Shown here piece by piece: positions 5,078 to 56,498 of a stretch of DNA of 58,911 bases. The DNA lies in the IMG/VR virus record IMGVR_UViG_3300012943_000005, positions 1-58,911 of that record; one strand, written 5' to 3'. A model generated the notes under the pieces. The model did no database searches. It was given only the letters and a program-made list of their open reading frames with translations, and was not told the DNA's origin. Numbering within the stretch: the stretch's first letter is position 1; every line of letters starts with the position of its first letter. This DNA comes from a virus (taxonomy: Duplodnaviria > Caudoviricetes). The translations under genes and the position numbers were made by a program.

Positions 5078-5091
5078 TTATCCAGGGATAA
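5078..5091. repeat. Conserved junction palindrome TTATCCAGGGATAA
   Basis: Matches TTAKCC-NN-GGMTAA; just upstream of the capsid promoter. Confidence 0.85.
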
Positions 5092-5161
5092 AGTGAGCCC
5101 CCAGGGGATCTCTCAGGACCGGCGGCCTGCGTTCTCCCCCCGAGTCTGCGCAGGTCGCCGC

Positions 5162-5773
5162 TCACTCATCCTGAATGCACACCCACACCGTGAGGTCCCG
5201 ATCCAGAGGTAGCCGCTGATGGATGCCGACCTCGGTGAAGGTGAACCCGGAGGGACAGTCCCCACTGGGCCGGGGAGAGGGCGTCGGCGCTGGCGACCCA
5301 GCCGGACCGCGCTCGCCTGGCTCACCCTGCTCACCCTGTGCACCGCGTGGTCCACGCTTACCCTGCTCACCGGCTGGACCCCGGTCACCGGTGTCACCCT
5401 TCTCGCCCTTGCTGCCGCTCTTGCCGTCCTGACCCGCCGGACCCTGTTCCCCAGTGTCGCCCCGCACCCCCGGCGAGCCCTGCTGTCCCGGACCCCCGTC
5501 ACTGCCCGGCACGCCATCCGACCCATCGAGTCCTGGCGGTCCGGTCGGCCCCGTCGAGCCCGCAGGCCCTGGCGGTCCGGTCGGTCCTGGTGGTCCGGCA
5601 GGTCCTGGCGGTCCCTGTGGCCCCTGTGGTCCCGGGATGCTGACCCCGGCATTGCTGGTGTTGTTTGGGAAGACCAGCCCGACGAAGACGGTGGAGGCGA
5701 AGGCGAGCAGAGCCAAAAGCCCGGCGACGACGTACCCGGTGGGGCTACTGGTCAGTCGCCCCAGTAGTGGCAC
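5162..5773 (-). CDS. Membrane-anchored collagen-like protein (lysis cassette accessory)
   Basis: N-terminal transmembrane helix, long G-X-Y repeat, C-terminal Cys pair. Confidence 0.8.
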
Positions 5774-6086
5774 TGGACGCCTCTCTCGCGTTGGCGGAGC
5801 GGTCGAACTCCCAGGTACGGGAGCCGTCGGCCGCGCGGGTCATGTTCATGTGCGCGTCGGTGCGTCCGGCCAGGAAGCCGGCCAGCAGGCCGATCAGGGT
5901 ATTGATGACGTCCCCGATCGCACCCACCATTTGCGAAGTGTCGCGGGTTGGCTGCAGTAGCGCCAGCAGTCCCACCAACGCACCGGAGGCCAGCACTGAG
6001 AAGCAGACAGTAAAGGATATTCCTAATATTAGTAAGTCACCCGTGGTGCGATCCGACCACCACGGTGCCTTACGAGCCCGAGCCAT
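5745..6086 (-). CDS. Two-TM membrane protein (holin-like) with recoded 5' end
   Basis: ATG at 6086 with GGAGA RBS; two hydrophobic segments. Confidence 0.7.
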
Positions 6087-6097
6087 TAGGAGTCTCC

Positions 6098-6538
6098 ATG
6101 ACACGTGTGTACCGTCGCCGCCCCGCTGGCATGTCCGTCGAGGACCACTTCTGGTCCCTGGTGAACAAGGCCGGTCCCGACGACTGCTGGCTGTGGGGAG
6201 GTCACGGCGAGCGCTACGGGCAGTACCGGCGACGCGGAGCGCACGTCTGGGCCTACGAACTCACACATGGCCCAGTCCCCCCAGGGCTGTACGTCTGCCA
6301 CACCTGCGACACCCCGCTCTGCTGTAACCCAGCCCACCTCTGGCCTGGCACCAACGGGCAGAACATCGCGGACATGTACGCGAAGGGTCGCGGAGAGAGG
6401 CGCGGGCGGAAGCGGGAGATCGACTACGACCAAGTGCGCACGCTGTACGCCCACGGCCTGACGCAGGACCAGATCGCCGAGCGGCTCGGCTGCTCGCAGT
6501 CGGCGGTATCGGGCATCGTGCGCCGCATCCGGGCGTGA
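6098..6538 (+). CDS. HNH homing endonuclease with C-terminal HTH
   Basis: CWLW...AHVWAY...VCHTCDTPLCCNPAHL...N motif; TQDQIAERLGCSQSAVS HTH; AGGAG RBS; antisense to its neighbours. Confidence 0.9.
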   Translation: MTRVYRRRPAGMSVEDHFWSLVNKAGPDDCWLWGGHGERYGQYRRRGAHVWAYELTHGPVPPGLYVCHTCDTPLCCNPAHLWPGTNGQNIADMYAKGRGERRGRKREIDYDQVRTLYAHGLTQDQIAERLGCSQSAVSGIVRRIRA

Positions 6539-11788: not shown

Positions 11789-14278
11789 TCAGCCCACCCT
11801 CTCTCGTAGCTTGGCCATCTTCTCTCGACGGATGACTGCGGCGATCGCCGCAGCCTGCGCCATCTCGATCAGCTCCTGCACCGGGTCCTCCGGCTTGGCC
11901 ACCACACCGGCAGCCACCAAGGAGACCTGCTGACGGTCGTGCACCGTGACGACGGGGAAGCCCGCCACGTTGACGGCCAGAGCCGCGATCATCTCCATGT
12001 CGGCCCCCCGCTCGCGCCAGTCACCCGAGACGTCAGAGGCCCGCAGTGCGACGATCTGCTGCTCGGTGGTACCCGGACGCACCCACCCCGCGCACCAGAT
12101 GCCGTGCTCGTCCTCACCCACACTGACGTCGCAGACAGCCGCCGTGGTGTTGTCGTAGTGCGCCGCTGCCGGTCGCAGTCCCATCCGCCCGGGAGCATGG
12201 CCGTTGCCCAGTGAGATCACCCCGGTGCGCGCCGTCTCACCGTTGTCCAGCAGCACCGAGCCGGTGGCGTAGTAGGCGTACCCCGAGGGGGAGTTCGGCG
12301 GGGCCACACAGACCCCGTCGTAGCCGACGTGACAGGTCCCCCACTCCGCGATGTGGCCGAACACCCGGCCCTCCTCGGTGATCGTGAGGTGAGTGGGACC
12401 CTCCAGGTTTGGGTTGTCGAACCAGGCAGCGGGAGCCTTGATGGACGCAGCGCTGGCCACCATGCTCAGAGCCGGACCCCGCTCCGCGGAGTCGGCTTTA
12501 GCCATGGATACAGCCGCCTGCTCACTCGGTGCCCGACCGGGCCAGAAGCCGATGGCATCGTGGTGCCACTGAGCGCAGATCTGGTTCAGGAAGCGCGTGT
12601 CCTCCGGGGAGTTCTCGGCGATCTTCTCCCCCACCAGAGCGCGGCAGCGGTTGAAGTCCCCCGGCACCCCCCAGTTGATCTTGGCGTAGCCCTCGTGCCC
12701 CGGCTGGGTCCAGTAAGCCCAGATGCGCCGGGTGTCCTCCGGGTTGGTGATCCACCCCGGCCCACGCCCGAACGTCTCAGCCTCCTCGCTGGCCTTGAGC
12801 ACGTCAGGAACCTCTTCCCCCAGCTGCCTGTACGCGCCGCGCAGTTGCCGGGCTGCGCTGGCCTTGGCCTCGGCCGGTGCGTCCACCTGGTTGAACCGGG
12901 AGGCTGCCGCGTGCACGCCCGCTCGCGACAGTGCCCCACCCGGCTCCTTGATCGGCAGCTTGTGGCAGGACTTCTCATCGCCCGTGCAGACGTGCAGCAC
13001 ACAGGAGGCCTTCCACTGCTCGGGGGTGAAGCGCCCCGCACTGCCGTCCCAGGCGGCGTCGGAGATCATCTCCACCACATCGCCCGCGGTGGCCAGCGAG
13101 TAGGAATCCTCCTCGGCCATCCGGTCCTCGATGTCCGCCGGGGGTTCATCCTGGGCCTTCTTCGCCAAGCACTCCTCGTAGTCGGGAGAGTCGGGATCGC
13201 ACTCGTCGTCATCCGCCTCGTCCAGGAACTCCGGCGGCACCTCGCCGTCCGCCTCGGCCCAGGTGCCCAGCGCGACGAACGCCTCGGCGAAGGCGGGGAT
13301 CGAGACCAGGCAGGCCGAGCACGCCCGCGCCGAGGTGAAGGAGATCTTGCCGGTCTCCTCGTCGAAGGCGAACTCGGAGTCGTCGGCGTCCACGCTCACC
13401 CCGTAGCGTCCGAACTCCGCGATCAGCCCGACCACCTCGTCGGTCTCCGGGGTGTCCACGAAAACGCCCTCGAACCGCATCAGGTTGACCCCGTCCTCGC
13501 CCTCGACCCGCTCGATGGTGTCGATCCGGCCCACCACCACCGAGGTGTTGTGGCCCTCGGCGGTCTGCTTCTGCCAGGTCAGCGGCAGCGGCAGGTCGCG
13601 GGTGCGCAGCGAGCCGGGCATGAACCGGCGGCCATCGCCCGACCACGCACCCTCCGGGGCCATCACGCCATGCCAGGCGAGGGGGGATTCGAGGGGCATG
13701 TCCTTCTCCTTCACAGCGGCCGTCAGAGAGGCGGCGTCGAGGTTGACGTACACAGCCTGCAGAACACACCTGCAGTTCATCGTGTTGTCCAAACTGCCCC
13801 GGGGATCACCTGGGAACCGCAGATTCTCGCCACCGACGAAGAACAGCGAGCCCGGGGGGCGGCGCTGCCGGTCAGCCTTCTGGTGGGCCTCGCGCACGTG
13901 TGAGTCGTGCATGGTGGTCCACCTCAGCAGGATCGGACGAGGGTCGTCGGCAGCCGCCTGCACGCTGGCCGCGTTCATCGTCGAGACTGCCAACCAGGTG
14001 GCGATCCGCTCTGGATCGGAGTCGGTGGTGGTCTTCGCCAGTGCCCGGGCCAGCGACAGCAAGAAAGCGGCGGTGTGTGCCCGCCGGTCCCCGCCCTCGG
14101 CCAGGTAGGTCTGTGTGTAGACCTGGGTGAGGGCCTCGCGCAGGTCGGTCAGCGCCTGCAGGTCGGTCGGGTCGGCGACCAGTGCTTTGGCGTAGGGCAG
14201 CAGATCCGCGATCACCGCGTCCTGCTGGGACCGGCGGCGGGCCGCGAACTCCTCGGTCTCCAGCACGGCGGCAGTCAT
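11789..14278 (-). CDS. MuF-like head morphogenesis and capsid maturation protease fusion
   Basis: WTTMHDSHVREAH...FPGDP...NCRC (MuF); SGDGR and LPLPL protease region; GRVFGHIA.W..CH and SGDWR C-terminal motifs. Confidence 0.8.
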   Translation of the reverse strand: MTAAVLETEEFAARRRSQQDAVIADLLPYAKALVADPTDLQALTDLREALTQVYTQTYLAEGGDRRAHTAAFLLSLARALAKTTTDSDPERIATWLAVSTMNAASVQAAADDPRPILLRWTTMHDSHVREAHQKADRQRRPPGSLFFVGGENLRFPGDPRGSLDNTMNCRCVLQAVYVNLDAASLTAAVKEKDMPLESPLAWHGVMAPEGAWSGDGRRFMPGSLRTRDLPLPLTWQKQTAEGHNTSVVVGRIDTIERVEGEDGVNLMRFEGVFVDTPETDEVVGLIAEFGRYGVSVDADDSEFAFDEETGKISFTSARACSACLVSIPAFAEAFVALGTWAEADGEVPPEFLDEADDDECDPDSPDYEECLAKKAQDEPPADIEDRMAEEDSYSLATAGDVVEMISDAAWDGSAGRFTPEQWKASCVLHVCTGDEKSCHKLPIKEPGGALSRAGVHAAASRFNQVDAPAEAKASAARQLRGAYRQLGEEVPDVLKASEEAETFGRGPGWITNPEDTRRIWAYWTQPGHEGYAKINWGVPGDFNRCRALVGEKIAENSPEDTRFLNQICAQWHHDAIGFWPGRAPSEQAAVSMAKADSAERGPALSMVASAASIKAPAAWFDNPNLEGPTHLTITEEGRVFGHIAEWGTCHVGYDGVCVAPPNSPSGYAYYATGSVLLDNGETARTGVISLGNGHAPGRMGLRPAAAHYDNTTAAVCDVSVGEDEHGIWCAGWVRPGTTEQQIVALRASDVSGDWRERGADMEMIAALAVNVAGFPVVTVHDRQQVSLVAAGVVAKPEDPVQELIEMAQAAAIAAVIRREKMAKLRERVG

Positions 14279-18003: not shown

Positions 18004-18363
18004 TCATCGCACTTCCTCGTCGTCGCTGCCACCCATGCCGTACCTGCCGACGACCACCCGGGTGTGCAACCGGGGGTTCTCCCCGTCCGGCTTGGGTCCC
18101 GGTGTGGAGGTGTTCTCCCCCGTCGGGTCGAACAGGTAGTTCGATGTGGTCCTGCCGGTGGGAAGCTGGGAGATCAGCTCATCCAGATCGAGGTCGAGGT
18201 CTTTCGCGAGCTTTTCGCAGACCGCCAGCTGGCAATAGCGGGTGTTACTCAGAATCCCGGTCGCCAGGCACGCCTTGTAGATTTGGTAGGGCATCCAGGC
18301 CGCAGTGGTGAACTGAATCTTGGCTCGGAACTCGCCGTACTTCTCGTCCAGTCGGAAAGGCAT
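18004..18363 (-). CDS. Hypothetical protein, possibly ribbon-helix-helix DNA-binding
   Basis: 119 aa; KIQFTT strand followed by two helices; junction palindrome 4 nt upstream of the ATG. Confidence 0.55.
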   Translation of the reverse strand: MPFRLDEKYGEFRAKIQFTTAAWMPYQIYKACLATGILSNTRYCQLAVCEKLAKDLDLDLDELISQLPTGRTTSNYLFDPTGENTSTPGPKPDGENPRLHTRVVVGRYGMGGSDDEEVR

Positions 18364-18367: not shown

Positions 18368-18379
18368 TTATCCGGCTAA
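18368..18379 (-). repeat. Junction palindrome with 0-nt spacer (TTAGCCGGATAA on minus)
   Basis: Supplies the TAA stop of 18368..18895. Confidence 0.75.
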
Positions 18380-18895
18380 ATCCTCGTCGGGCACAACCTC
18401 AGCCTCCCAGATATCGCCCTCCTCGACCTCGGGAGTCAAGGTGGCGGTCATCCGGAACACCCAGTCCTCCAGCTCGGTCTGAGTCGGGGTGGAGATCACC
18501 ACCTCTGCCGGTGCGGCCAGTCCGTAGAGCTTGGTGTAGTCCGCGATCAACTCCCGGGACCGGGAAACCGCGGTTATCTGCTCCGGGTTGGTCGGGTCGA
18601 TGGCCTTGCTCCAGATCCCCCGCAGCAACCGCTCCAGCCGGATGCCCGCCAGCAGTCGGAGCTGGTCCTTGCTGGTGTCGGCAGCCAGTTGCCGCTGGAG
18701 TGCGCGCTCGACCGAGGCCAGCGCCTGCCGCGGAGTGGGGTAGCCCAGCGTCTGGGCGATCTCGGCCCAGTTCGCCCCGGTCATCCGCAGCTGCAACGCC
18801 GCGTCGGCCTTGCGGTTGCGGGCGATCAGGGCACTGTTCTCCCGGCCTGTGGCCGCCACCCCGGTCGGGTCGGAGGAGTCCTGTCGGGTGCCCAT
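18368..18895 (-). CDS. HTH protein, probable terminase small subunit
   Basis: ALQLRMTGANWAEIAQTLGY HTH; KLYGLAAP motif; upstream of the large terminase. Confidence 0.65.
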   Translation of the reverse strand: MGTRQDSSDPTGVAATGRENSALIARNRKADAALQLRMTGANWAEIAQTLGYPTPRQALASVERALQRQLAADTSKDQLRLLAGIRLERLLRGIWSKAIDPTNPEQITAVSRSRELIADYTKLYGLAAPAEVVISTPTQTELEDWVFRMTATLTPEVEEGDIWEAEVVPDEDLAG

Positions 18896-19001: not shown

Positions 19002-20150
19002 ATGGCCAGGTGCGCCTGCGGGAACAGTGCCTGCTCGTGCATCATCACGTCGGCCCCTCAGGGCGGGATCGTGGTGACCGGCAACGGGTCGCCCGAGCAC
19101 CCCTACGAGATCGGCACCGCGGCGGGCGGCAACCCGCTCGACTCCTTGCAGATGGTGAACAGCCCGACGGTGGAGTGGGCTCAGTCCGGCGCAGGCACGG
19201 TCGCGGACAAGCGTCGCTGGATCGCCACCGCGATGGTCGGGATGCGCGAGCTGACCGACGTCTCCAAGACCGACGTGCCGGTTGCCGGCGACGTGGTGCA
19301 GTGGAACGGCTCGGAGTGGGTGTTCGGCACCCCCGGAGCCACCGCGGTGCCGGTCTCCGGTGTCTGGGGCTCCCCGCCGCTGAGCATCTACGGTGCCGAC
19401 TCCACCAAGGGCCGGGAGATCTACACCGACTCCAACGGCGTGATCCGCACCAAGCCGATCGCCTTCAACGCCGCCGCCGCCGGCATCACCGCGTCGACCC
19501 CCGGGTCGTCCTACCCGGTCGGCTACTCGGTGATGCGGGTGCTGAACTCCGACAACACCGCGGGCTCGGGTTGGCCGCTGCCTGCGGGGACCTTCGGCTA
19601 CGTGGAGAACCTGCGGGCGCTGGACAGTAGCAACGTCGTCCAGGTCTGGCACCGGGACACCGCCAGCGCGACCGCCCAGGCGGTCTGGCAGCGCAGCTAC
19701 AGCGGTACCACCTGGCTGCCGTGGACCTGGGTGGGTGGCAACGGGCCGTGCTACTCGGCCCGGAAGACCGCCAGTCAGACGATGCCCACCGCGAACACCT
19801 TCTACACCCTGACCTACGACGCCTCGTCGATCGACGAGGGCGGGATCTCCTACTCCAGCGGTGTGTTCACGGTGCCCTTCCCGGGCAAGTACCAGATCAA
19901 CTGGAACCAGCACTTCCAGGTCACCGGCAGCCCCAGCCTGGTGATCAACCTGTACCAGAACAGCCTGCTCGCCGCAGCCATCTCCAACGCCGGGCAGTCC
20001 GGGAACCACAACCTCAACCTGTCCCGGCTACTGAGGTGCGTCGCCGGGGACACCATCAAGGTGCAGGCGAGGTCGTCGGTGGCCAACACCGTCGCCTACG
20101 GCACCAGTACGCCGTACTCCACCTTCGACATCACCCTGCTGGGAGGCTGA
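19002..20150 (+). CDS. Minor tail fibre: Cys-rich N-terminus, knob-like and C1q-like domains
   Basis: MARCACGNSACSC start; GVFTVPFPGKYQIN and CVAGDTIKV C1q-like patterns. Confidence 0.75.
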   Translation: MARCACGNSACSCIITSAPQGGIVVTGNGSPEHPYEIGTAAGGNPLDSLQMVNSPTVEWAQSGAGTVADKRRWIATAMVGMRELTDVSKTDVPVAGDVVQWNGSEWVFGTPGATAVPVSGVWGSPPLSIYGADSTKGREIYTDSNGVIRTKPIAFNAAAAGITASTPGSSYPVGYSVMRVLNSDNTAGSGWPLPAGTFGYVENLRALDSSNVVQVWHRDTASATAQAVWQRSYSGTTWLPWTWVGGNGPCYSARKTASQTMPTANTFYTLTYDASSIDEGGISYSSGVFTVPFPGKYQINWNQHFQVTGSPSLVINLYQNSLLAAAISNAGQSGNHNLNLSRLLRCVAGDTIKVQARSSVANTVAYGTSTPYSTFDITLLGG

Positions 20151-20151
20151 C

Positions 20152-40499: not shown

Positions 40500-40683
40500 C
40501 CTGATCCGGCTGGCGACCTGGGTTCTCGACGGGATCACCGAGCCGCTCTACCCGTACACCGACACCGAGGCGACGGTGCACCTCGGCCCCGCGGTGTGGA
40601 TGGTGCCGGACGGCTACCTCTACGCCAACGGCGTGATCTACGAGCCGGTCACCGAGGAGGACGACGATGAATCCGGTCAGTGA
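40354..40683 (+). CDS. Hypothetical protein
   Basis: AAGGAGCAACC RBS; 109 aa. Confidence 0.7.
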   Translation: MDLAEPLPDTPEKETLTERQRARVVALEIARPLLTSTGIASRTPPSLDDLIRLATWVLDGITEPLYPYTDTEATVHLGPAVWMVPDGYLYANGVIYEPVTEEDDDESGQ

Positions 40684-40912: not shown

Positions 40913-40949
40913 GATTTATCCACACCTAAACACACAAGGAGCAACCACT

Positions 40950-41318: not shown

Positions 41319-41412
41319 CGCCGAACTGCTGTACGAGACCCTCGACCAGTACGACGAGGCGGGCTACGAGATTTGGGAGCCGGCCTCCGACGTCGAGGAC
41401 AGGGAGAACTGA
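41311..41412 (+). CDS. 33-aa acidic peptide
   Basis: AAGGA RBS, TGATG coupling. Confidence 0.45.
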   Translation: MPDAELLYETLDQYDEAGYEIWEPASDVEDREN

Positions 41413-41819
41413 TGCGGTGCTTTCAGATGATCAGGGATGAGGACCAGACCGGAATCTCCGGCACGGGGGTCGTGGCCCAAGGGGTGGAGTTCGACGACGG
41501 GACTGTTGTCATCCGCTGGCAGACCCACGGCGACTCCCACCACTCGACGGTGGTGTGGGCCAGTCTGGAGGACGCCCGGGCCATCCACGGGCACGGCGGC
41601 AGGACCTGGTTCCAGTTCACCCAGGGACTGCCGTGGCCGCCGGCGGACGAGCACAACGACCCAGCCGAGTTGGCCGAGGAGGGACGGCGGCTGGCCTCCC
41701 GTCGAGAGGACCTGATCGCCCAGGGGGTCGACCCCAACGACCTTGAAGTCCCGCTGCACCCGGTCGAGGCCACCGACGACGAGAACCTGCGCACCTGGAG
41801 GGAGGAGACCAATGGCTGA
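41412..41819 (+). CDS. Conserved phage protein
   Basis: R.ED.TGISGTGVVAQGVEFDDGTVVIRW...IHGHGGRT. Confidence 0.75.
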   Translation: MRCFQMIRDEDQTGISGTGVVAQGVEFDDGTVVIRWQTHGDSHHSTVVWASLEDARAIHGHGGRTWFQFTQGLPWPPADEHNDPAELAEEGRRLASRREDLIAQGVDPNDLEVPLHPVEATDDENLRTWREETNG

Positions 41820-42105
41820 GCAACAGTGGCTGTGCCGGTACTGCGGCAGGGCCATCCCGGGCGAGGTGTCCAGCCAGCCCTGCCCGGGCTCGCCCGACCG
41901 GATGCACCGCCGGGGGGAGCCGTGGTCACCGGAGGACGAGATCGACCCGGACTGCGTGCTGGTGGCCGGGTCGATGTTCGCCCTGCTGTCGGAGAACGAG
42001 CACGTGATCGACGCTGAGCCGATCGAGGGCCAGATGAACGCTGTCCGGTTCGGGCTGTCGTACCTGCGGTCCCGCTATCGGATCACCGTGAGCAAGGAGG
42101 AGTGA
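41812..42105 (+). CDS. Hypothetical Zn-finger protein
   Basis: CRYCG...CP.....H. Confidence 0.65.
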   Translation: MAEQQWLCRYCGRAIPGEVSSQPCPGSPDRMHRRGEPWSPEDEIDPDCVLVAGSMFALLSENEHVIDAEPIEGQMNAVRFGLSYLRSRYRITVSKEE

Positions 42106-42368
42106 TGGACGAGGATGAGGACCTGCCGGAGCTGGAGCCACTGGACCGGCGGGACTACATCATCGGCGAGGTCGAGCACCTGACCGGGTCGGACTGGCCG
42201 GAACGGATCGCCGACCGGCTGGGCTACGCGAACACCGCAGCCCTGCACATGGCGCTGCTGCGCTGGGGTCGACCCGACCTCGCCCACTGGTTCGAGCGCT
42301 GGGTCTTCGACGGCAACGTCCGCCCGGCACTGGTAGCCCAGATCGCCACCCGGAAGGCGGCAGCGTGA
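42102..42368 (+). CDS. Small HTH-like protein
   Basis: PERIADRLGY...AL...L.R.GRPDL. Confidence 0.65.
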   Translation: MMDEDEDLPELEPLDRRDYIIGEVEHLTGSDWPERIADRLGYANTAALHMALLRWGRPDLAHWFERWVFDGNVRPALVAQIATRKAAA

Positions 42369-42370
42369 GG

Positions 42371-42384
42371 TTAGCCGCGGATAA
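42371..42384 (+). repeat. Junction palindrome TTAGCCGCGGATAA
   Basis: Between the 42368 stop and the 42410 start. Confidence 0.9.
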
Positions 42385-42409
42385 ACACCAACCAACACGA
42401 GGAGCAACC

Positions 42410-42967
42410 ATGGACAACGAAGAACTGTTCGCCAGCCTGGCGATGGATGACAACGCCCTGCCGATCGCCATGATCGCGCACCAGGGGCCACCCCCTGCGG
42501 CGGAGTTCTACCTCTCCCTGATGCGCTCGATGATCGAGGAGACCGGCCAGGCCACCGGCTGCATCTGCTTCGGCACCGAGACCGTCAGCGGCATGTTCCC
42601 GCTGGTGCACTGCAACCCCCAGGAGGGACTCGGGCTGCTGATCCTGATGCGGCAGCAGGGTCTGGTCGACTCGATCGCCTGGGTCGCCCTGGCGGCGGAC
42701 TCCTGGCGGAAGGTCTTCCCCTCCGACGTCGACCCCGAGGACATCAACAAGGGGGACCTGGAGCGGATGCACGAGGCCGGGGACCCCGAGGTCGAGGAGG
42801 TGCTGATCGTCACCTGCAAGGCACCTGACGGCCCCGGCTACGACGCCTCTCAGGGCTACTCGCGCACGCCGGACGGCATCGAGTGGGCCGAGGTCGAGTA
42901 CCTCAGCCCTGGGGTCGACGTGCAGGGTGAGATCAACCGGCTGATGACCGAGCTGGTGCTGGCGTGA
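42410..42967 (+). CDS. Hypothetical protein
   Basis: 185 aa; GAGGAGCAACC RBS. Confidence 0.8.
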   Translation: MDNEELFASLAMDDNALPIAMIAHQGPPPAAEFYLSLMRSMIEETGQATGCICFGTETVSGMFPLVHCNPQEGLGLLILMRQQGLVDSIAWVALAADSWRKVFPSDVDPEDINKGDLERMHEAGDPEVEEVLIVTCKAPDGPGYDASQGYSRTPDGIEWAEVEYLSPGVDVQGEINRLMTELVLA

Positions 42968-43075
42968 GCCTGCTGGAGGTGATTGCCCTGGGCTTCGCGT
43001 CCGGGGTGATCGGCGGGGTGGCGTACGTCCACCTGACCGACTGGATCATCCGACACAGGATCGAGAGGAGGCGAT

Positions 43076-43303
43076 GTGATCACGCTGCACGTGGAAGCGA
43101 CAGCCACGGACCTGGAGTCCCTGACGGGCAAGATGCAGCAGATCGCTGACGACTTCTTCGGTCGCACGCCCTATGCCCCGGAGGGGGACCTGCGGGCATG
43201 GATCGAGGACGAGGTCACCGCGATGAACGGCACGGTGCTGCTGCGGAACTTCGCCGGGGAGCAGGACTTCCTCGGTGACGCCCAGGGACCGAGCAGCGAA
43301 TGA
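43076..43303 (+). CDS. Hypothetical protein
   Basis: GGAGG RBS. Confidence 0.6.
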   Translation: MITLHVEATATDLESLTGKMQQIADDFFGRTPYAPEGDLRAWIEDEVTAMNGTVLLRNFAGEQDFLGDAQGPSSE

Positions 43304-43512
43304 TGTTCTTCCGGGTGGGCAGGAGACGGTTCCGACTGAACCGGCAGGACACCGGCGTGAAGGGTCAGGCGTGGGTGCTGGAGCGCGAGGGTGCGTACAG
43401 CGAGCACGACGGCCAGCGCCGCAGCCGGCACTGCCGCACCGAGATTCCGGTCAATGAAGAGACCCTGACTCTGATGCTGGAGCAGGCCGTGAAGTGGCAG
43501 GACTCGTGGTAA
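43300..43512 (+). CDS. Hypothetical protein
   Basis: ATGA overlap. Confidence 0.6.
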   Translation: MMFFRVGRRRFRLNRQDTGVKGQAWVLEREGAYSEHDGQRRSRHCRTEIPVNEETLTLMLEQAVKWQDSW

Positions 43513-43835
43513 GAGCCACCGCCATACCGCAGCGAGCGCGCGACCAGGTCCGGTCGCGCGCTCGGCACCGGTGTGAACGGTGTCTGGTGCCCGCTCCGCA
43601 CGGGCACTGGCACCACCGCCGCTCCCGCTCCATCCGTGATGAGCACACGCATCATCCGTGCAATGGAGTCTGGCTGTGCCAGGCCTGCCACACCTGGGTG
43701 CACGCCAACCCACAGAACGCGCGGGACGACGGCTGGATCGTCAGCCGGGGGATGTGGCCCTGGCTGTACCCGTTCCGGACACCGGCCGGATGGGTGCTGC
43801 CCGACTGCGACGGCGGTTGGACCAACCCGCTGTGA
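43506..43835 (+). CDS. HNH-family nuclease
   Basis: RCERC...HHRRSRS...CNGVWLCQACHTWVH. Confidence 0.8.
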   Translation: MVRATAIPQRARDQVRSRARHRCERCLVPAPHGHWHHRRSRSIRDEHTHHPCNGVWLCQACHTWVHANPQNARDDGWIVSRGMWPWLYPFRTPAGWVLPDCDGGWTNPL

Positions 43836-43840
43836 AGGGC

Positions 43841-44140
43841 ATGAGTGAGGCGGACTTCGTGAAGCGGATCATCGACACCGCCCACCTGCTGCACTGGAAA
43901 TGCACGCATTTCCTACCGGCACACACGGGAAAGGGCTGGCGCACCGCGCTCCAGGGTGATCCTGGGTTCGTCGACATCGTCTTGGCCAAGGGTGGGTGCG
44001 TGTTGCACGTCGAGGTGAAGACTGACACCGGGAGAGTCCGACCTGACCAGATCGAGTGGGCCAAGGAGATCGGGCCGTCCTACCGGCTCTGGAGGCCACG
44101 GGACTGGGACGTGATCCTGGAGGAGCTGAAATCTCAGTGA
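43841..44140 (+). CDS. VRR-NUC / PD-(D/E)xK nuclease
   Basis: SEADF...PGFVDIVL...VEVKT..GRVRPDQ.EW...LWRPRD. Confidence 0.8.
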   Translation: MSEADFVKRIIDTAHLLHWKCTHFLPAHTGKGWRTALQGDPGFVDIVLAKGGCVLHVEVKTDTGRVRPDQIEWAKEIGPSYRLWRPRDWDVILEELKSQ

Positions 44141-44363: not shown

Positions 44364-44377
44364 TTATCCGGGGCTAA
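44364..44377 (-). repeat. Junction palindrome (TTAGCCCCGGATAA on minus)
   Basis: Contains the TAG stop of minus-strand gene 44374..44652. Confidence 0.9.
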
Positions 44378-44652
44378 CGGTAGAACCCGTCACCCCACTT
44401 GAGCGGTCGGCCACGACGCTCGTTCTCCGAGCGGGTCATCGCCAGAGCGCGCTTCCTGCTGTGCAGGTGCAGGTCCAGCGCAGCCTGGAAGCGACCCGTG
44501 GCGCGGGCGTCGAAGTAGGCCGCCCGCCACTGCCTGGTCACCTGTTCCTCCAGCACGTCCCACACCCCGCTCAGCCAGACCAGCCGCTGGATCGGGTCGT
44601 GCGGGGCAGCGGAGAAGTCCAGCCGGAGGCCGTCCTCGTGCACGGTGGTCAT
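44374..44652 (-). CDS. Hypothetical protein, lone leftward gene
   Basis: 92 aa, GGAGG RBS. Confidence 0.7.
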   Translation of the reverse strand: MTTVHEDGLRLDFSAAPHDPIQRLVWLSGVWDVLEEQVTRQWRAAYFDARATGRFQAALDLHLHSRKRALAMTRSENERRGRPLKWGDGFYR

Positions 44653-44654
44653 AG

Positions 44655-44682
44655 TTGCGTTGCCTCCTGAATGTACTAAAAT
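44655..44682 (+). promoter_or_regulatory. Promoter of the recombination genes
   Basis: TTGCGT-N16-TAAAAT. Confidence 0.7.
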
Positions 44683-44726
44683 GGTGTACATAAGGCTACC
44701 AAAGTTCACTCACTGCAAGGAGCATC

Positions 44727-45314: not shown

Positions 45315-45487
45315 GTGTCACCGCCCCGCGCGACACTGAGGAGAGGCCGGTCTGCTCGGCGTGCCGCGACGGCGAGCACGGCAAGTGCAACACCGCGGCC
45401 TGGAGTGTTATCCGGGATAAGCCAGGACCGTGCTGGTGCTGGGTGTACAACCACGAAGGAGCGACCAGTGGATTTACAGCTGCTTGA
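45311..45487 (+). CDS. 58-aa Zn-binding peptide
   Basis: CSACRDGEHGKC...CWC...H; ATGA overlap. Confidence 0.55.
   Translation: MSVTAPRDTEERPVCSACRDGEHGKCNTAAWSVIRDKPGPCWCWVYNHEGATSGFTAA
45408..45420. repeat. Palindrome with 1-nt spacer, TTATCCGGGATAA
   Basis: 47 nt upstream of the exonuclease start. Confidence 0.75.
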
Positions 45488-46445: not shown

Positions 46446-46556
46446 CGTGCCTCACCCCGGTCCCGGCCGGTTGGGCTACGGTCCTCCGGCATGACAGTTG
46501 CGGCCATGATGGCGTCCTCTCTGGTGGCGCTGGCCGGGGTGGGGTTCGATAACGAG

Positions 46557-46877
46557 ATGACGAATCATCGCGTGCATTTCGCGGGCCTGGGGGACACCCT
46601 CCAGGCCCGTTGCTCGTGCAAGCAGAAGTCGCCGATCGGGACCCGATCCGACGTCGAGGCGTGGAAGTACGAGCACGAGCAGATGGTGCAACGGGTCCGG
46701 GCTCACCTGGGCACCCGCAACCCCACGCTGAAGACCACCGCAGCCTGGTTCGAGGCTCAGGCGGCCAACCCCGACGTCGACCCCGAGGACCGGGTGTTGT
46801 GGAAGCAGCTGGCCGAGGAGACCGGTGCGTACATCGCGCGGAAATCCACTCTGATGGAGCAGGACCCACTGTTTTAG
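46557..46877 (+). CDS. Hypothetical protein
   Basis: H.V...ARCSC...W...H Zn-like motif; stop inside a palindrome. Confidence 0.65.
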   Translation: MTNHRVHFAGLGDTLQARCSCKQKSPIGTRSDVEAWKYEHEQMVQRVRAHLGTRNPTLKTTAAWFEAQAANPDVDPEDRVLWKQLAEETGAYIARKSTLMEQDPLF

Positions 46878-46887
46878 CCGGGGATAA
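46874..46887 (+). repeat. Junction palindrome TTAGCCGGGGATAA
   Basis: At the point where the two genome arms converge. Confidence 0.9.
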
Positions 46888-51800: not shown

Positions 51801-51935
51801 TGCGAGTTTCCCGGTCACCCGCCCGCCGGGGCGTGAGCCCGAGCCAGCACCGTCCAGGCTGACGGTGATCGACTTGACATCCTTGGGGACGACCCAGGAC
51901 GACCAACCGATCTTGGTGAAGCCAACCGAAGGCAT
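48846..51935 (-). CDS. Large minor tail / baseplate hub protein with Gly-rich and FN3-like domains
   Basis: 1029 aa; poly-Gly domain; repeated WQVRT strands; VWEGPI hub motif. Confidence 0.8.
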   Translation of the reverse strand: MPSVGFTKIGWSSWVVPKDVKSITVSLDGAGSGSRPGGRVTGKLAVKAGQRIYCHVGQAGKANMGTAGGGATSGGGGAGGSGKSGQQGGYSGGGYSAIRIGSSSGTLRAVAGGAGGDSGDGGRGGAGGGLSGADGQLAGGLTVEGVATGGTQYQGGNGGRSPVGVDYNGGSAKDATVSTGGVGGTPPSGSGAGGGGGGGGLRGGGGGRAGASGQAPGGGGGGGSSFTGGLTGAANTQGGGGTGNGSVSITWVAPPPKNQPPTVPRNVRLNGVAVTNAMLTKSTGSVKITANLIDTNKQNVRMLVRWSADSKFSTYKQVFSAWVKYDKDGKDVSVTISGLAKNTLYYVRLYAQDAKKLYSTGYSGFSFWTDRAPTSPSGLTVNGLSSGMTLPSLSSSVFGWTHNDPDVADYQSGFEIWYRKAATSTTAAGAWTKISKSGGINTSKVVGPPSSAKNTWTFDPGTFAGNYFWEWQVRTKDQAAGVWGTWSLLSTFRSQSSDSPPVLLAPGNKTAVDVTEDHTFTWRFVDPDTKDSQKKADLRYRVLGETKLVTSGKAPSLDPSSGWVTLNGVVSPGVPGGTSAWPRPAGTFIGGYTYEWQVRTYDSPSGTASGWSDSFQFYAINAPGSAVTDQPLADITVPGGSLGCGTYRAFIYQQGGQRLLGEIEPITRLTFTRLRDDISSATVFTNGYSADCGQLYGATRTWMHEMVLFRDGVRVWEGPITRIGYSVDSVEFEAKDVMAYAYRRIMRQGYNDTYRLIAKASGSTPEQYIGLMSVVERAALLLIQGLAPYDPNVLDYLTTINYPSDAKETRVVANWSRTVWEEVDDLAATAGLDYTTVGRRILLWDTHQAIGRLPELRDGDFNNHPIVTEYGMQLATFFAVTNGAGVAGTTEVEAKTDPYGPIEQLASSYSDSSAASTEILTPDAQDKLEKALTGQAERNIAHRWPAPLVVRIPDNSTLNPNVPIGFQQLIPGVWMPLRSINTPREVLQWQKLDSVSVDVTESGETVNVVLSPAPNGGNDPDADVTGGEG

Positions 51936-53248
51936 CAGGCGATCCGCGATACCAGGAGCATGTCGACGACCGGCTTGGCCGTCTGCTGCTGCGGCATGTC
52001 GATCGTCACGACGTAGCCGAAGCCGCAGGAGAACTCGGGCCAGTCCATCGGCCTGCCCGAGGAGTCGGTCGCCAGCGAGTCGGCCCGCCGCCGGCCGATC
52101 CCCGCGCTGTCGATGTAGATGTCACGGTCGGCCCCGTCCAGCACGAGCGTCGAGGACGGCGGGAGGTAGGAGATCACGATGTCACCGCAGTAGTTGCACG
52201 GGTCGCTGTTGGGGTCACCCGTGCCGAAGACGTCGGCGTAGAACCGCAGCCGGACGTTCCGCGCCTCCTCGGCCTTCGTGGACAGCTTGATGATCGGCAC
52301 CACCTGGTCCCACAGCGGGATGAACTGTGCTGGCAGGGTGAAGAAGTACCGCATGTAGTTGGCCGGGAAGCTGAAGCAGGTGGGCACGATCGTGGGGACG
52401 TCCGGCGGTGGGGCGAGCAGGTCGCAGGTCGGGTCGTAGACCGGCGTGTAGACCGCCACCGGACAGGCGTCGTCGCTGTCGACGTGACCGAAGTAGTCGT
52501 AGACCCCGCCCTCGGGGATCACGCCCCCGGCGTAGGGCACCTCCACCGCGGGGTCCAGGAAGCCGACCACGAACGGGAGTTCGACCCCGAACTCGGCCGG
52601 GTTCGCAGCCACCATCGTCCAGGTCACCGACCAGGCACAGCCACCGTCGGTCATGGCCATCTTCTGGGTCACCACCGGCCCCACCGTGGTGGTCACGTCG
52701 TGCAGCTGACGACCCACCTTGGCGTAGCAGTCCGTCGCAGACTCCTCGCACGACTCGTCCACACAGGGGGCGCAGCTCAGGTAGCACAGGTCAGCCCCAC
52801 CGCAGACCCCGTAGTCGGGGGAGAAGCACGGTCCTGAGGTCAGCGCCGTGCGGAGCCATCGCAGCCCGTACTCGACCGCACACTCGCTCGCTCCGACCAG
52901 GACAGCGGAGAACACCGCCGTGCGGGTCTTCCGGCGCGGCTTCTGGACGTAGCCGCCGTCGACCACCGACTCGACCACCACACCCTCGACGGTGGAGTCC
53001 TCCAGGCCCTCGATGTTCAGCGGGTAGACCCCCCAGAAGTCGTAGGAGTCCAGCCGGTCGGGATCGGTCCAGGGAGCCTCATCCTGCAGCGGCGAGGTGT
53101 AGTCGGACTCCCCGAGCAGCCAGGGCAGGTCGCCCTCGCCGTAAGCAGCTCTGAACCAACCCACGTCGAAGTGGCGACAGTAGCTCTCGACTCGGGTGCT
53201 GTTGATCACCTCGGTGCCGTTGAACATGAAGTAGCCCGGCCACGCCAT
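51935..53248 (-). CDS. Minor tail protein (distal-tail-like)
   Basis: 437 aa directly after the tape measure; GYF.FNGTEVIN..R and APW.DP. Confidence 0.75.
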   Translation of the reverse strand: MAWPGYFMFNGTEVINSTRVESYCRHFDVGWFRAAYGEGDLPWLLGESDYTSPLQDEAPWTDPDRLDSYDFWGVYPLNIEGLEDSTVEGVVVESVVDGGYVQKPRRKTRTAVFSAVLVGASECAVEYGLRWLRTALTSGPCFSPDYGVCGGADLCYLSCAPCVDESCEESATDCYAKVGRQLHDVTTTVGPVVTQKMAMTDGGCAWSVTWTMVAANPAEFGVELPFVVGFLDPAVEVPYAGGVIPEGGVYDYFGHVDSDDACPVAVYTPVYDPTCDLLAPPPDVPTIVPTCFSFPANYMRYFFTLPAQFIPLWDQVVPIIKLSTKAEEARNVRLRFYADVFGTGDPNSDPCNYCGDIVISYLPPSSTLVLDGADRDIYIDSAGIGRRRADSLATDSSGRPMDWPEFSCGFGYVVTIDMPQQQTAKPVVDMLLVSRIA

Positions 53249-53258: not shown

Positions 53259-53272
53259 TTATCCCTGGCTAA
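53259..53272 (-). repeat. Junction palindrome (TTAGCCAGGGATAA on minus)
   Basis: Adjoins the GGAGG RBS of the 53248 gene. Confidence 0.9.
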
Positions 53273-53275
53273 ACG

Positions 53276-56200
53276 CTAGATGTACGAGCCCGCCACGACC
53301 CGGGCGAAAACCTCGGCGGCCACGGCTGCGGGGTCCTTGGTCGGGGTGACGATGGTGACGTTCATCGTCGGCTTCTCCTTGGACGGCTTGCCGGGGATGT
53401 CCAGCCCCTGGGCGAAGGCCGACAGGGCGCGGACGGACGGGTCGACCTGGGACAGGGACCGGTTCAACGGCACCACCGCCTCCGGCCCGGCCTCGCCGAT
53501 CCAGGACAGCATCGGGCCGTGGGTGATCGACCCTCTCGCGAGCCCGGCGACAGCACCTGCGGCCGACGCGATCACGTCGCCGTTGCGCGGGTCGGTGATG
53601 ATGGCCTTCACCCTGGGCCGCTTGATCTCGGGGATGATCACGTCCACCGTGACGGTGACCTTGCCGATGGCCCGCTCGATGTCCTTGTCCAGGCCGTCGA
53701 ACTGGTTCACGATGCCCTGGGCCACCCGGTGAGCCTCCTTGACGCCCCCCTGACCCCAGTCGGAGACGGCACCGCTGAGGCTGCCAGCCTCCTTCATCGA
53801 AGCGGAGGCGAGGCCGGAGAACTGGTCAGCCATCTTGTCCGCGGTGGCGTCGGCGGCGGGCGGACCGCCCGCCAGCCAGTTCTTGGCTGCCTTGGCGAAG
53901 TCCCCGGCCTTGCTGAAGATCTTGCCCGCAAGCCCGATGAACTTGCCGATGATGTCGGTGACGATCTGGGCAGCCTTGCCGGCCATGCCCTTGATCCAGG
54001 TCCACGCAGCCGCGGCGGCGTCGCCCGCCTGGGTGAACAGCTTGGCTGCCAGCCCGATGAAGGCGGCAGCGATCTTGCCGACGACCTCGGCAGCCTTGGC
54101 CACCATGCCGATGATCCAGGTGCCGAAGGCCACGACGGTGTCCGCGATGGCCTGTGCGATGGCGGTGGGCAGCTTGAAGAACCAGCCGATGATGGCGTTG
54201 ATCAGATCCGGGATCAGGCTGTTGCCCACCAACCAGTTGTAGAGGTCGATGAAGGGCTTCTTGATCGGGTCGAGGAACCCTGACATGTCGGGCCAGTGGA
54301 AGGCACCGAAGGTGTTGGCCCACTGCTCACTGATCCAGGTCCCAAGATCAGTGAAGAGGCCTTTGATCCAAGTGCCCAGAGCAGTGAAGGCGGCCTCGAT
54401 GGCAGGTGCCGGGTCGAAGTTGTCAACCCACTCGTTGAGTGCCCGAGCAGCTCCATTGATCCAGTCGGGGAAGCCCAGGAAGACGGCCTTGATCGTGGCC
54501 CCGACCGTCCGCCAGAAGTTCTGGATCTTCTGACAGACCTCCAGCCACCAGGTGAGCACGCCGACCGCGTCGGTGAGAGCGCCGATGATGCCGTTGATGA
54601 TCCCGAGGATGTCCATCAGCAACTGGCGGGACACCGGGGTGTCCAAGGCGTCGATGAACTCGACCACCGACACGACGATCTCGCCGAGCTTCTCCCCCAG
54701 TCGCTGGGCGTCCTGGAACCACTGGTCGAGGGCCTTCTGGCCCTCCGGGCTGGTCAGCCAGCCGACGATCTCCTTCACCTTGGCTGCGATGTCGCCGAAC
54801 ATCTTGTCCCCGTAGGGCTGCCCGGACCCGAAGATGGTGGCGATCAGGGAGCCGATCGAGCCGATCAGGTCGAACAACACCTTGGCCGAGTCCCACGCCT
54901 TGTTGAAGAAGCCCGCCAGATCGGAGCTACTCCCCCCCTTGCCGAGTTCGACGAACTTGGTCATCAACCCGTCGAGCCAGCCCAGCAGCTCGGAGATGAT
55001 CGGCGACAGGGCGATGAAGGCCTGTCCGAGGCCGAGCAGGAGCTTGCCGCCAATCTGGCCGAGCAGGGTCACCATCGGCCCGAGGGCCGCGGTGATGCCG
55101 GTGATCAGGTCCTTGAAGCCCTTGGTCTCGGCGAAGTCACCGAACTGCTTCAGCAGGCCACCGAGAGCCGCGGACACGGTCTTCACGATGGGCTCCAGGG
55201 ACGTCAGAACCCCGGAGATGACCTCGAACCCGGAGCCATCCTTGCCGAAGATCCCCTCGGCGGCGATCGACTGGAGTTCCTTCCACTCCTTCTTCATGCT
55301 CTTGAAGCCGTCGGTCTTCTTCATCTCCTTGGAGATGCCGGAGATAGCCAAGGCCCCCACGCCGAGGGCAGCAGCGAAGGGCACCATCGCCCCCGCCACG
55401 GCCCCCAGAGCCCCCACCAGGGCGAAGCCCAGGGAGCCCGCCAGGGCCAGGATCAGACCGGTGGCCAGCGAGACGGCGGCCCCCAGAGCGGGCAGAGTCA
55501 CCGACAGGGTGGTGATCGCCAGTGCGATGGCCGCTGCCAGGGCGATCAGCCCTGGCAGTCCGGTGGACGCAACCCCACCGAGAGTCTGGATGAAGGCCTG
55601 AAAACCCTTCGACCCCTCGTCCATCCGCATCTTGACCTCGCCGGCGAACCCCGCCAGACCCGCCTTGGCGGTGGCCACGAAGCCGAGGATCGCCGCCCCG
55701 GCCCGAGGCAGGATCGACATGAAGCCACCGAAGAAGTTGACGAAGTCGTTGCGCGAGCCGCGGCCGAAGAGTCGGCCGGTCCAGTCGCCGGAACCCTTGA
55801 TCACACCGCTGAACCGGGATAGCACCGGGGTCGCCCGGGAGATGTTGCGGTGCAGCTCGCGGAAGCGGGCGGTCAGGTCGGCGCTCGGCCCCTGGATCTG
55901 GACCATCCGCTCGCGCAGCCGGACCAGCTCCTTCCGCAGGTCGGCTCGCGTGCCGACGCCGCGCTCGATGCCCTGGGTGTAACGCTCGACCGAGCCGCCG
56001 AGCTCATTCCACATGCGCTCCTGGTCATCGACGATCTGACGGGTCGCCTTGGCCAGATCGGGTCGGAGGTTGGCCAGCCGGTTGGTCAGTCCGGTGTAGT
56101 CGATCTGGCCGGACTGCAGAGCCTCGTTGAGGTTCTTGATGACCACCAGGCCGACGTCGCCGTGGTCGCGCTCGATCTGCTCCTTGATCCCGTCGAGGAT

Positions 56201-56476
56201 GCCCTCGCCCGCCTCGCCGCCCATGATGCGGCCCTCGGCGTTCCACCGGCCACGCCCCCGCTGGAACGCCTCCATGACGGTCTCGGAGTCCTCCGAGCCG
56301 ACCTTCTCCATCTCGTCGGAGAAGCCACGCCGGTAGTCTGCACCGTGGTCGCGTCCGATCTCCTCGAACTGGGACTCGCTGTTACGCAGCTGGCGTCGCA
56401 GGTCCTCGTCGAACCCGGTGCCGTCGGCGAGGACGCGGACGTACGCCGTCCCGATCGTCTCCCCGCGAAGCGGCAC
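53276..56476 (-). CDS. Tape measure protein
   Basis: 1066 aa; IGTAYVRV start, long amphipathic helices, IGEAGPEAVVPL. Confidence 0.92.
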   Translation of the reverse strand: MPLRGETIGTAYVRVLADGTGFDEDLRRQLRNSESQFEEIGRDHGADYRRGFSDEMEKVGSEDSETVMEAFQRGRGRWNAEGRIMGGEAGEGILDGIKEQIERDHGDVGLVVIKNLNEALQSGQIDYTGLTNRLANLRPDLAKATRQIVDDQERMWNELGGSVERYTQGIERGVGTRADLRKELVRLRERMVQIQGPSADLTARFRELHRNISRATPVLSRFSGVIKGSGDWTGRLFGRGSRNDFVNFFGGFMSILPRAGAAILGFVATAKAGLAGFAGEVKMRMDEGSKGFQAFIQTLGGVASTGLPGLIALAAAIALAITTLSVTLPALGAAVSLATGLILALAGSLGFALVGALGAVAGAMVPFAAALGVGALAISGISKEMKKTDGFKSMKKEWKELQSIAAEGIFGKDGSGFEVISGVLTSLEPIVKTVSAALGGLLKQFGDFAETKGFKDLITGITAALGPMVTLLGQIGGKLLLGLGQAFIALSPIISELLGWLDGLMTKFVELGKGGSSSDLAGFFNKAWDSAKVLFDLIGSIGSLIATIFGSGQPYGDKMFGDIAAKVKEIVGWLTSPEGQKALDQWFQDAQRLGEKLGEIVVSVVEFIDALDTPVSRQLLMDILGIINGIIGALTDAVGVLTWWLEVCQKIQNFWRTVGATIKAVFLGFPDWINGAARALNEWVDNFDPAPAIEAAFTALGTWIKGLFTDLGTWISEQWANTFGAFHWPDMSGFLDPIKKPFIDLYNWLVGNSLIPDLINAIIGWFFKLPTAIAQAIADTVVAFGTWIIGMVAKAAEVVGKIAAAFIGLAAKLFTQAGDAAAAAWTWIKGMAGKAAQIVTDIIGKFIGLAGKIFSKAGDFAKAAKNWLAGGPPAADATADKMADQFSGLASASMKEAGSLSGAVSDWGQGGVKEAHRVAQGIVNQFDGLDKDIERAIGKVTVTVDVIIPEIKRPRVKAIITDPRNGDVIASAAGAVAGLARGSITHGPMLSWIGEAGPEAVVPLNRSLSQVDPSVRALSAFAQGLDIPGKPSKEKPTMNVTIVTPTKDPAAVAAEVFARVVAGSYI

Positions 56477-56486
56477 TGCTCCTCCT

Positions 56487-56498
56487 TTATCCGGCTAA
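56487..56498 (-). repeat. Junction palindrome with 0-nt spacer (TTAGCCGGATAA on minus)
   Basis: Contains the chaperone TAG stop; adjoins the tape measure RBS. Confidence 0.8.

Follow-up and report, generated by a model that had tools for sequence, protein, structure and literature searches.

The IMG/VR virus record IMGVR_UViG_3300012943_000005 (G000; a soil phage of the Duplodnaviria, Caudoviricetes), whose full 58,911 bp form the window analysed here, carries a short inverted repeat, TTAKCC-N0-2-GGMTAA with arms of 6 bp, which is a real, phage-wide and very strongly enriched polar element of gene junctions. The element is a variant of a kind of repeat already in print without a function. Comparison with ten related IMG/VR genomes (G001-G010) shows that the sites persist at orthologous junctions while their sequence turns over; the motif of G000 appears as the private version of one phage. 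We favour, tentatively and at somewhat less than an even chance, the reading that the sites are double-stranded DNA recognition sites for a co-evolving, phage-encoded protein that binds two half-sites, and that together they form a polar operator or roadblock network.

The record is a whole IMG/VR virus rated 100% complete, with a G+C content of 67% and a coding density of 92.7%. It contains 20 exact copies of the motif, against a mean of 0.0033 and a maximum of 1 in 300 dinucleotide-preserving shuffles; 30 first-order Markov sequences contained none. An earlier note on this DNA had listed 20 full matches, and each of its coordinates was recovered. Its remark that TTA and TAA are otherwise scarce also held (56 TTA and 64 TAA, against about 97 each in the shuffles). 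Copies with one mismatch are enriched as well (7 observed, 0.20 expected), while copies with two mismatches are not (4 observed, 3.1 expected). Among the near matches of that note, those at 1172, 12498, 26997, 28320, 33956 and 36487 have one mismatch, and a seventh copy of this class, at 35452, had been overlooked. The near matches at 27157 and 40916 have two mismatches; both lie at gene junctions and, because the two-mismatch class is not enriched, they are indistinguishable from chance by count. The spacer of the exact copies is 2 bp in fifteen, 1 bp in three and absent in two. Fourteen have the asymmetric form TTAGCC..GGATAA and 6 of the 20 are fully symmetric, three of them G/G and three T/T. 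The copies are as follows.

5078-5091, no strand: exact, symmetric T/T (TTATCC-AG-GGATAA), in the 165 nt that separate the leftward genes 3304-4947 and 5113-5652.
18368-18379, minus strand: exact, no spacer (TTAGCC-GGATAA), last four codons of the TerS-like gene 18368-18895, its final TAA being the stop; the next start (18363) is 4 nt on.
23216-23229, minus strand: exact, asymmetric, within the final 11 codons of 23197-23544; start 23197 follows after 18 nt.
24877-24890, no strand: exact, fully symmetric G/G, in the 362-nt divergent gap 24694-25055.
25020-25033, no strand: exact, fully symmetric G/G, 22 nt before the first rightward start, 25056.
26560-26573, plus strand: exact, asymmetric, 34 nt before start 26608.
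27494-27507, plus strand: exact, asymmetric, 25 nt before start 27533.
28623-28636, plus strand: exact, asymmetric, followed at once by AGGAGCAACC; 14 nt before start 28651.
29782-29795, plus strand: exact, asymmetric, its TAA the stop of 29385-29795; 12 nt to the next start.
30489-30502, plus strand: exact, asymmetric, with a GC hairpin after it; 82 nt before start 30585.
31402-31414, no strand: exact, 13-mer T/T, inside gene 30585-31682.
32652-32665, plus strand: exact, asymmetric, its TAG the stop of 32212-32655; 58 nt before start 32724.
37567-37580, plus strand: exact, asymmetric, its TAG the stop of 36533-37570; 8 nt before start 37589; left edge of a cassette.
39128-39140, no strand: exact, 13-mer G/G, within a longer palindrome; 31 nt before start 39172; right edge of the cassette.
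42371-42384, plus strand: exact, asymmetric, 2 nt past stop 42368; 25 nt before start 42410.
44364-44377, minus strand: exact, asymmetric, its TAG the stop of 44374-44709; convergent junction, no co-oriented gene downstream.
45408-45420, no strand: exact, 13-mer T/T, 47 nt before start 45468 of the exonuclease gene.
46874-46887, plus strand: exact, asymmetric, its TAG the stop of 46491-46877; 18-nt convergent gap.
53259-53272, minus strand: exact, asymmetric, at the junction of the tape-measure-like gene 53276-56476 with the minor tail gene 51935-53248, whose start is 10 nt on.
56487-56498, minus strand: exact, no spacer, overlapping the stop of 56495-56797; 10 nt before start 56476.
1172-1185, no strand: one mismatch.
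12498-12511, plus strand: one mismatch, inside the leftward gene 11789-14278 and against transcription.
26997-27010, no strand: one mismatch.
28320-28333, plus strand: one mismatch, 21 nt before start 28355.
33956-33969, minus strand: one mismatch, reversed, between the terminator 33894-33931 and start 33988.
35452-35464, no strand: one-mismatch 13-mer, inside the helicase gene.
36487-36500, no strand: one mismatch, 32 nt before start 36533.

The leftward virion genes begin at about 18.9 kb and continue across the record ends as far as about 46.9 kb, and a rightward block of about 40 mostly small genes, among them those for SSB, a RepO-like initiator and a DnaB-like helicase, extends from 25,056 to 44,140. 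Copies occur in both arms and, as the earlier note had it, mostly at gene boundaries. By a strict script count, 16 of the 20 exact copies are not wholly within a gene body, a state for which 8.7% of positions qualify (P = 3.7e-14). On inspection, three of the four copies called inside genes (18368, 23216 and 45408) were reassigned, which brings the junctional copies to 19 of 20 and leaves 31402 as the sole exact copy that is truly gene-internal. The copy at 45408 is intergenic if start 45468 is used, the start that the lengths of the homologues favour.

Orientation follows transcription. The transcribed strand reads TTAGCC..GGATAA at each of the 14 asymmetric copies (P = 6e-5), in agreement with the earlier note, which had also rightly named the near matches 33956 and 12498 as exceptions. 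A co-oriented start lies 4-34 nt downstream in 12 of the 20 exact copies and 47-130 nt downstream in four more; the other four comprise two copies at convergent junctions, the upstream copy in the divergent gap and the gene-internal copy. The typical order is an upstream stop codon, the motif, 0-20 nt, a strong ribosome-binding site (often AGGAGCAACC) and the start codon. In this orientation the motif offers stop codons in two frames, and in 7 of the 14 asymmetric copies it contains the upstream stop, either as the TAG of TTAGCC or as the final TAA. The two G/G copies with a 2-bp spacer both lie in the sole long divergent gap, 24694-25055.

The ribosome-binding region is itself unusually uniform. 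The sequence AGGAGCAACC has 11 copies in G000, 7 in G001 and 10 in G002; sites of this type, for example 28637-28646, 39157-39166 and 42398-42407, often stand just after a motif copy. By eye, 6 of 10 copies of GGAGCAACCA lie at most 40 nt downstream of a palindrome copy.

The earlier note had proposed to look for the motif in related phages. It is absent from the five closest records searched, and each of the four of these examined whole has a different palindrome; a collection-wide scan for the motif with two flanking bases gave single, chance-like matches only. All ten related IMG/VR genomes and all three cultured Arthrobacter phages have an abundant palindrome of their own, with at least 15 copies each, and many terminase-centred fragments likewise show their own. 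Among the relatives' palindromes are GTTAAGG-cnn-CCTTAAC, CTTAGG-caa-CCTAAG, GTTTAGT-s-ACTAAAC (31 copies), GTTTATCC-GGATAAAC, GGTCCTGT-ss-ACAGGACC (36 copies in 32.7 kb) and TGACGACC-GGTCGTCA. As in G000, the relatives' sites are found in short gaps directly upstream of ribosome-binding sites. The cultured phage SilentRX has 32 copies of GGTCGG-n4-CCGACC, 17 of them intergenic by the annotation of its record in a genome that is 94.5% coding (P = 1e-13); the remaining 15 of 32 are inside annotated genes, a larger share than in G000. The palindrome of Ranunculus is GCCGGACGTCCGGC and that of Odyssey395 is GCCGGT-ss-ACCGGC, both GC-rich and present in tens of copies. One strain, A. globiformis B-2979, was the isolation host of SilentRX, Ranunculus and Odyssey395. 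Three different palindromes on one host strain mean that the phage, not a host factor, sets the sequence.

The positions of the sites are retained where the sequence is not. A site of the own-genome type lies upstream of 20 of 55 orthologues of the G000 genes that are preceded by a site, against 26 of 209 for the orthologues of the other genes (odds ratio 4.0, P = 1e-4). The clearest retained junctions are the one after the tape-measure gene and those before the families of 30585, 32724 and 33988. The junction of the 18368 copy holds an own-motif site in G001 and G002, and that of the 53259 copy in G001, G002 and G003; the orthologue downstream of the 30489 copy has such a site upstream in G001, G002, G003 and G005, and that downstream of the 33956 copy has one in G001-G005. 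Four relatives, G001, G002, G003 and G008, likewise show polarity, in the centre or in one arm of the palindrome; G007 does not. On the coding strand of G003 the central base is C in 16 cases and G in 3 (P = 0.004).

What is conserved within each genome is sequence and not base pairing. Across G000-G010 there are 198 one-sided changes that break a pair, 11 compensatory changes and 3 two-sided changes that do not pair; the two-mismatch cut-off somewhat favours single changes, but not enough to account for 198 against 11. The dominant G000 form places G opposite A in the would-be stem, and as RNA the G000 sites are no more stable than their shuffles (−2.35 and −2.15 kcal/mol, respectively). The same is true of the G004 motif, whereas the motifs of G006-G010 would form stable hairpins (−7.6 to −12.3 kcal/mol). 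The G000 motif is not a stable hairpin, and selection for pairing is lacking. Since the half-site sequence is the conserved property, these counts argue for a sequence reader acting on duplex DNA.

The earlier note had thought the system perhaps undescribed. This did not hold: similar repeats have been reported, without a function, for two clusters of actinophages. Cluster EG phages of Microbacterium have an 18-bp inverted repeat, GATCAACCNNGGTTGATC, in 8-10 copies located 14-22 bp upstream of starts (PMC7302621, PMC9224216). The EG repeat resembles that of G000 in its inverted arms, 2-bp spacer and location in short intergenic regions of lytic phages without repressor or integrase. It differs in sequence and in being confined to 8-10 copies at the genome's right end, and no polarity was reported for it. 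One EG repeat is also common to the three EG phages described there, whereas here every relative has its own. Cluster O mycobacteriophages have a 17-bp dyad, TGTTCGGNNNCCGAACA, with over 30 copies scattered through each genome, many of them in short gaps between genes; a dimeric binder was suggested by its authors, who also noted a protein with a ParB-like domain in the genome (PMC4351075). These phages are unrelated to G000, 11 of the 34 copies are clearly within genes, the arms are invariant, the repeats are not oriented to transcription and a single sequence serves the whole cluster. Near-identical inverted arms, starts downstream and no match to an integrase or repressor place G000 with the EG and O type.

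A second relevant group is that of the stoperators of Cluster A (L5-type) and Cluster CA, which are present in many 13-14-bp copies, in one orientation, in intergenic regions or overlapping gene termini, with a group-specific consensus (PMC13313380). They are like the G000 sites in their orientation relative to transcription, placement at gene termini and genome-wide distribution. Unlike them, stoperators lack symmetry and are features of temperate phages whose repressor is known, while the G000 site is a near-palindrome in a genome in which neither integrase nor repressor was found. The earlier note had seen no integrase or cI-like repressor either, and a Pfam scan of 76 open reading frames (ORFs), taken singly, matched no integrase, recombinase, cI-like repressor, sigma factor or RNA polymerase family. 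A novel repressor could still be encoded, because most of the small ORFs match no family. REP elements are also multi-copy, intergenic and species-specific palindromes, but they are longer and fold, whereas the G000 motif does not, and no HUH/RAYT-type transposase was matched among the same 76 ORFs. The phiC31 repressor binds conserved inverted repeats (CIR), which are strongly conserved palindromic operators present repeatedly between the genes of an actinophage; that phage, unlike those considered here, is temperate and has a known binder. The SAS/ESAS of Clusters K and EF combine a conserved ribosome-binding region with an upstream repeat (PMC7302621), as the uniform AGGAGCAACC of G000 often stands behind one. 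The ESAS is weakly conserved and tied to the SAS, whereas the G000 palindrome is well conserved and also occurs without a conserved ribosome-binding site. The Cluster AU boundary repeat, described in a preprint, was set aside as a different, 32-bp repeat. Nothing in the literature consulted describes one private palindrome per phage across a clade, retention of position with turnover of sequence, or a binder; figures S10 and S13 of PMC7302621 may hold more.

Among the three functions offered in the earlier note, operator or roadblock sites fit best, in view of where the copies lie, how they are oriented, their presence at convergent junctions and the pair that stands in the divergent gap; we infer both the reading of the sites by a protein and its effect on transcription. 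The motif of G000 would be the private version of a set of dispersed inverted-repeat junction sites common to the clade. A phage-encoded, sequence-specific protein would read the duplex half-site by half-site and evolve together with its sites, and the bound sites would act as a polar network controlling transcription across junctions. The fully symmetric pair in the long divergent gap would be the part of this network that serves the head of the rightward block. Both copies at convergent junctions (44364 and 46874) fit a boundary or roadblock role and not a promoter. By analogy, such a network may work like the L5 stoperators or the KorB and KorA operators of RK2, while being a member of neither family.

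Several observations weigh against this. None of the conserved DNA-binding candidates tested co-varies with the motif. The helix-turn-helix of the TerS-like protein (18368-18895) is conserved across phages with different motifs; the putative DNA-reading strand of the 18004-18363 product is invariant among them, even in G006; and the small, universal protein 33132-33434 keeps its helix in phages whose motifs are unlike. All three were rejected as readers. A protein of ParB/Srx fold, encoded at 22470-23009, belongs to a family of which no member was found at E < 10 with a 36-sequence profile in G004, a complete genome with about 30 strong-motif sites, and its C-terminal domain, modelled for the G000 protein with a predicted local distance difference test score (pLDDT) of 44-69, changes type across the clade. 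A spacer varying from 0 to 2 bp among the G000 copies would be ill-tolerated by a rigid dimer, and a symmetric dimer alone does not account for the 14/14 polarity; coding economy may contribute to the latter, because half of the asymmetric copies supply the upstream stop. No sigma-70-like promoters were detected near the sites (2 against 1.2 expected in a scan of 24001-44000), and a promoter picked by eye at 24929-24956 proved weak, with 7 of 12 consensus positions and no report from the scanner. The authors of the Cluster O study judged a transcriptional role unlikely for their own repeats (PMC4351075).

Other candidates for the reader were also considered. The earlier note had put forward six possible binders. 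Of these, 22470-23009 proved to have the ParB/Srx fold, 18004-18363 was rejected as above, and 24289-24693, 25056-26021, 37589-38692 (which contains the 37700-38692 of the note) and 38689-39105 gave no informative family match. The product of 25056-26021, the first rightward gene, is an orphan with 3 distant relatives among 1.8 billion representatives; its likeness to ParB/KorB clusters in the Atlas is sub-threshold (template modelling score 0.29-0.33) and its PDB matches are at chance level. The RepO-like initiator 34487-35161 occurs in 4 of the 11 genomes only, and was rejected. So was the product of 6065-6538, on the plus strand within the virion arm and opposite to its neighbours, which combines an HNH endonuclease with a C-terminal helix-turn-helix and is likely a homing endonuclease insertion; it has no relative in G001-G004, although an iterative profile search did match G006 and G009. 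For 33132-33434, an AlphaFold2 model (pLDDT 77.6) found no PDB fold match at E <= 0.001. An SSB-anchored collection of early-region loci contained only 4 distant loci. One of the small, lineage-specific early proteins, of which there are many, may be the reader.

The 18004-18363 gene, on the minus strand between the TerS-like gene and that of the large terminase, looks by eye like a ribbon-helix-helix protein. In Ranunculus and Odyssey395 the same slot holds a protein annotated as a ribbon-helix-helix DNA-binding protein, whereas gp13 of SilentRX, also in this slot, is not homologous to the 18004-18363 product. A stand-alone ribbon-helix-helix protein was not found in G004 (best E = 0.17).

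Recombination linkers, the third option of the earlier note, would be sites kept because a Rad52-like annealing protein and an exonuclease swap cassettes between co-infecting relatives, which we hold to be unlikely as the reason for their presence. L061 and G010, which share a motif, have two blocks in swapped order with the motif at the overlapping joints, and 4 of 17 ends of homology blocks between them lie at most 25 nt from a site, against 0.97 expected (P = 0.015). In G000, a two-gene block at 37589-39105 without a relative in the other ten genomes is bounded exactly by the copies 37567 and 39128. Of the 11 genomes, 10 encode the Rad52-like protein and the exonuclease, and deletions between repeats have been reported for Cluster O (PMC4351075). 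This one cassette swap stands, but the statistics are weak: only one of the six block-end tests reached significance, the other five giving P = 0.13-1.0. Because each lineage has a different motif, exchange through linkers would be confined to very close kin, which counts against them, and the benefit of shuffling is second-order and leaves the near-perfect conservation of 20-50 copies, their polarity and their retention at orthologous junctions unexplained. As 20-30 identical short sequences between genes, the sites would also serve as joints for cassette exchange, and we rate cassette recombination as a side effect.

Plasmid RK2 carries 12 copies of the operator OB. Together with OA (GTTTAGCTAAAC), OB (TTTAGCGGCTAAA) represents short dispersed palindromes for global regulators; their sequences share TTAGC with G000 and closely resemble the motifs of G003-G005 (PMC11790492). 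The sites might accordingly be loading or anchoring points at which a ParB/Srx-fold protein organises, silences or marks the chromosome as KorB and ParB do, a possibility that we consider quite doubtful. The candidate is as follows.

22470-23009, minus strand: ParB/Srx-fold protein with a short, low-confidence C-terminal domain; a weak candidate reader.

It is the sole conserved protein found with the fold of a known DNA-clamp family. Its N-terminal part matches ParB, Noc and KorB over about 90 residues (Foldseek E = 4e-6 to 8e-4, root-mean-square deviation 2.3-3.4 Å), and its sequence matches PHROG ParB-like families (E = 2.5e-27) and Spo0J (E = 4e-5). The family is present in 10 of the 11 genomes and in 44 of 80 terminase-centred loci. 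Against such a role, G004 has its sites without the cognate protein, the G000 protein has other residues in place of the GERR arginine box found in CTP-binding ParB proteins, and no ParB-type helix-turn-helix was detected in it; the sole HTH_ParB match of the genome is in the unrelated HNH protein 6065-6538. A homodimer prediction for the C-terminal 52 residues scored 0.33, against a mark of 0.42, and weighs on neither side. RK2 is a plasmid and G000 a phage.

An RNA element, that is, an intercistronic hairpin or a protein-bound signal for mRNA processing, stability or translation of the next gene, is improbable. In its favour, the copies are co-oriented with transcription and come after a stop codon but before the following ribosome-binding site, the palindrome's centre (the would-be loop) is strand-specific in G001, G002 and G003, and the G006-G010 hairpins are predicted to be stable, as described above. 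The instability of the G000 and G004 motifs, the G-A mismatch in the stem and the excess of pair-breaking over compensatory changes speak against it, as do the copies without a co-oriented gene after them (44364, 46874) and the copy 24877, which precedes the first gene within the divergent gap.

We give least credence to the reading, itself unlikely, that the sites are phage-specific promoters, or parts of promoters, for a modified host RNA polymerase. In its favour, the sites are polar, lie mostly 4-34 nt upstream of starts and ahead of the ribosome-binding site, are dense in the early arm and, like T7-group promoters, differ from phage to phage. Against it, no RNA polymerase or sigma factor was matched among the 76 scanned ORFs, the GC-rich palindromes of the relatives cannot serve as melting elements, two copies face convergent genes and one stands in reversed orientation directly after the terminator 33894-33931.

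Some further features of the genome deserve mention. No GenBank phage gave a megablast match to 24000-44000, and among GenBank phages there is no near relative at the DNA level; the large terminase is 43% identical to that of Cluster EG. For the clade, the analysis counted 343 relatives of the terminase in IMG/VR and 368 GenBank records. An exact 123-bp repeat at the record ends (1-123 = 58789-58911) may represent a genuine short terminal repeat of the kind that Cluster EG has, or the assembly overlap of a circular contig. Three rightward genes lie within the leftward arm at 19002-22487 (plus strand); two of their products have BclA_C/C1q-like C-terminal domains, which suggests fibre or decoration proteins. 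The sole strong intrinsic terminator of the rightward arm, a GC-rich stem of 17 pairs followed by a T run (33894-33931), is directly after the SSB gene, and the reversed one-mismatch motif copy lies 25 nt beyond it. An HNH endonuclease gene at 43494-43835 (plus strand), far from the terminase genes, is kept in 11 of 11 genomes, and members of its family are annotated in SilentRX, Ranunculus and Odyssey395. The small gene 44374-44709 (minus strand) is opposite to its neighbours and divergent from the operon of the Rad52-like protein and exonuclease. Its product is conserved in G000-G006, with an invariant basic C-terminus containing an RGRP (AT-hook-like) motif, and had no Pfam or PHROG match.

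Junction repeats have been on record in two actinophage clusters for ten years, still unexplained. Of greater interest here is the comparative pattern: private palindromes, differences between phages of the same host, retention at junctions and, in G000, strict polarity together make for a testable co-evolving recognition system, and the cultured relatives allow testing. If the reader were found, it would yield orthogonal DNA-binding specificities belonging to one family and show how sites by the dozen change together with the protein that reads them. More speculatively, and with rather low confidence, a large clade of soil actinophages may run a fast-evolving system of private addresses, in which each phage has its own reader and a matching 14-18-bp palindrome at 15-50 junctions, the sites keeping their places as their sequence turns over in concert; on the same footing, this clade would include cultured Arthrobacter and Microbacterium phages. 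If true, the private palindromes would define specificity groups among lytic phages, like the immunity groups of temperate ones, by which, for example, self would be told from co-infecting kin or rivals silenced.

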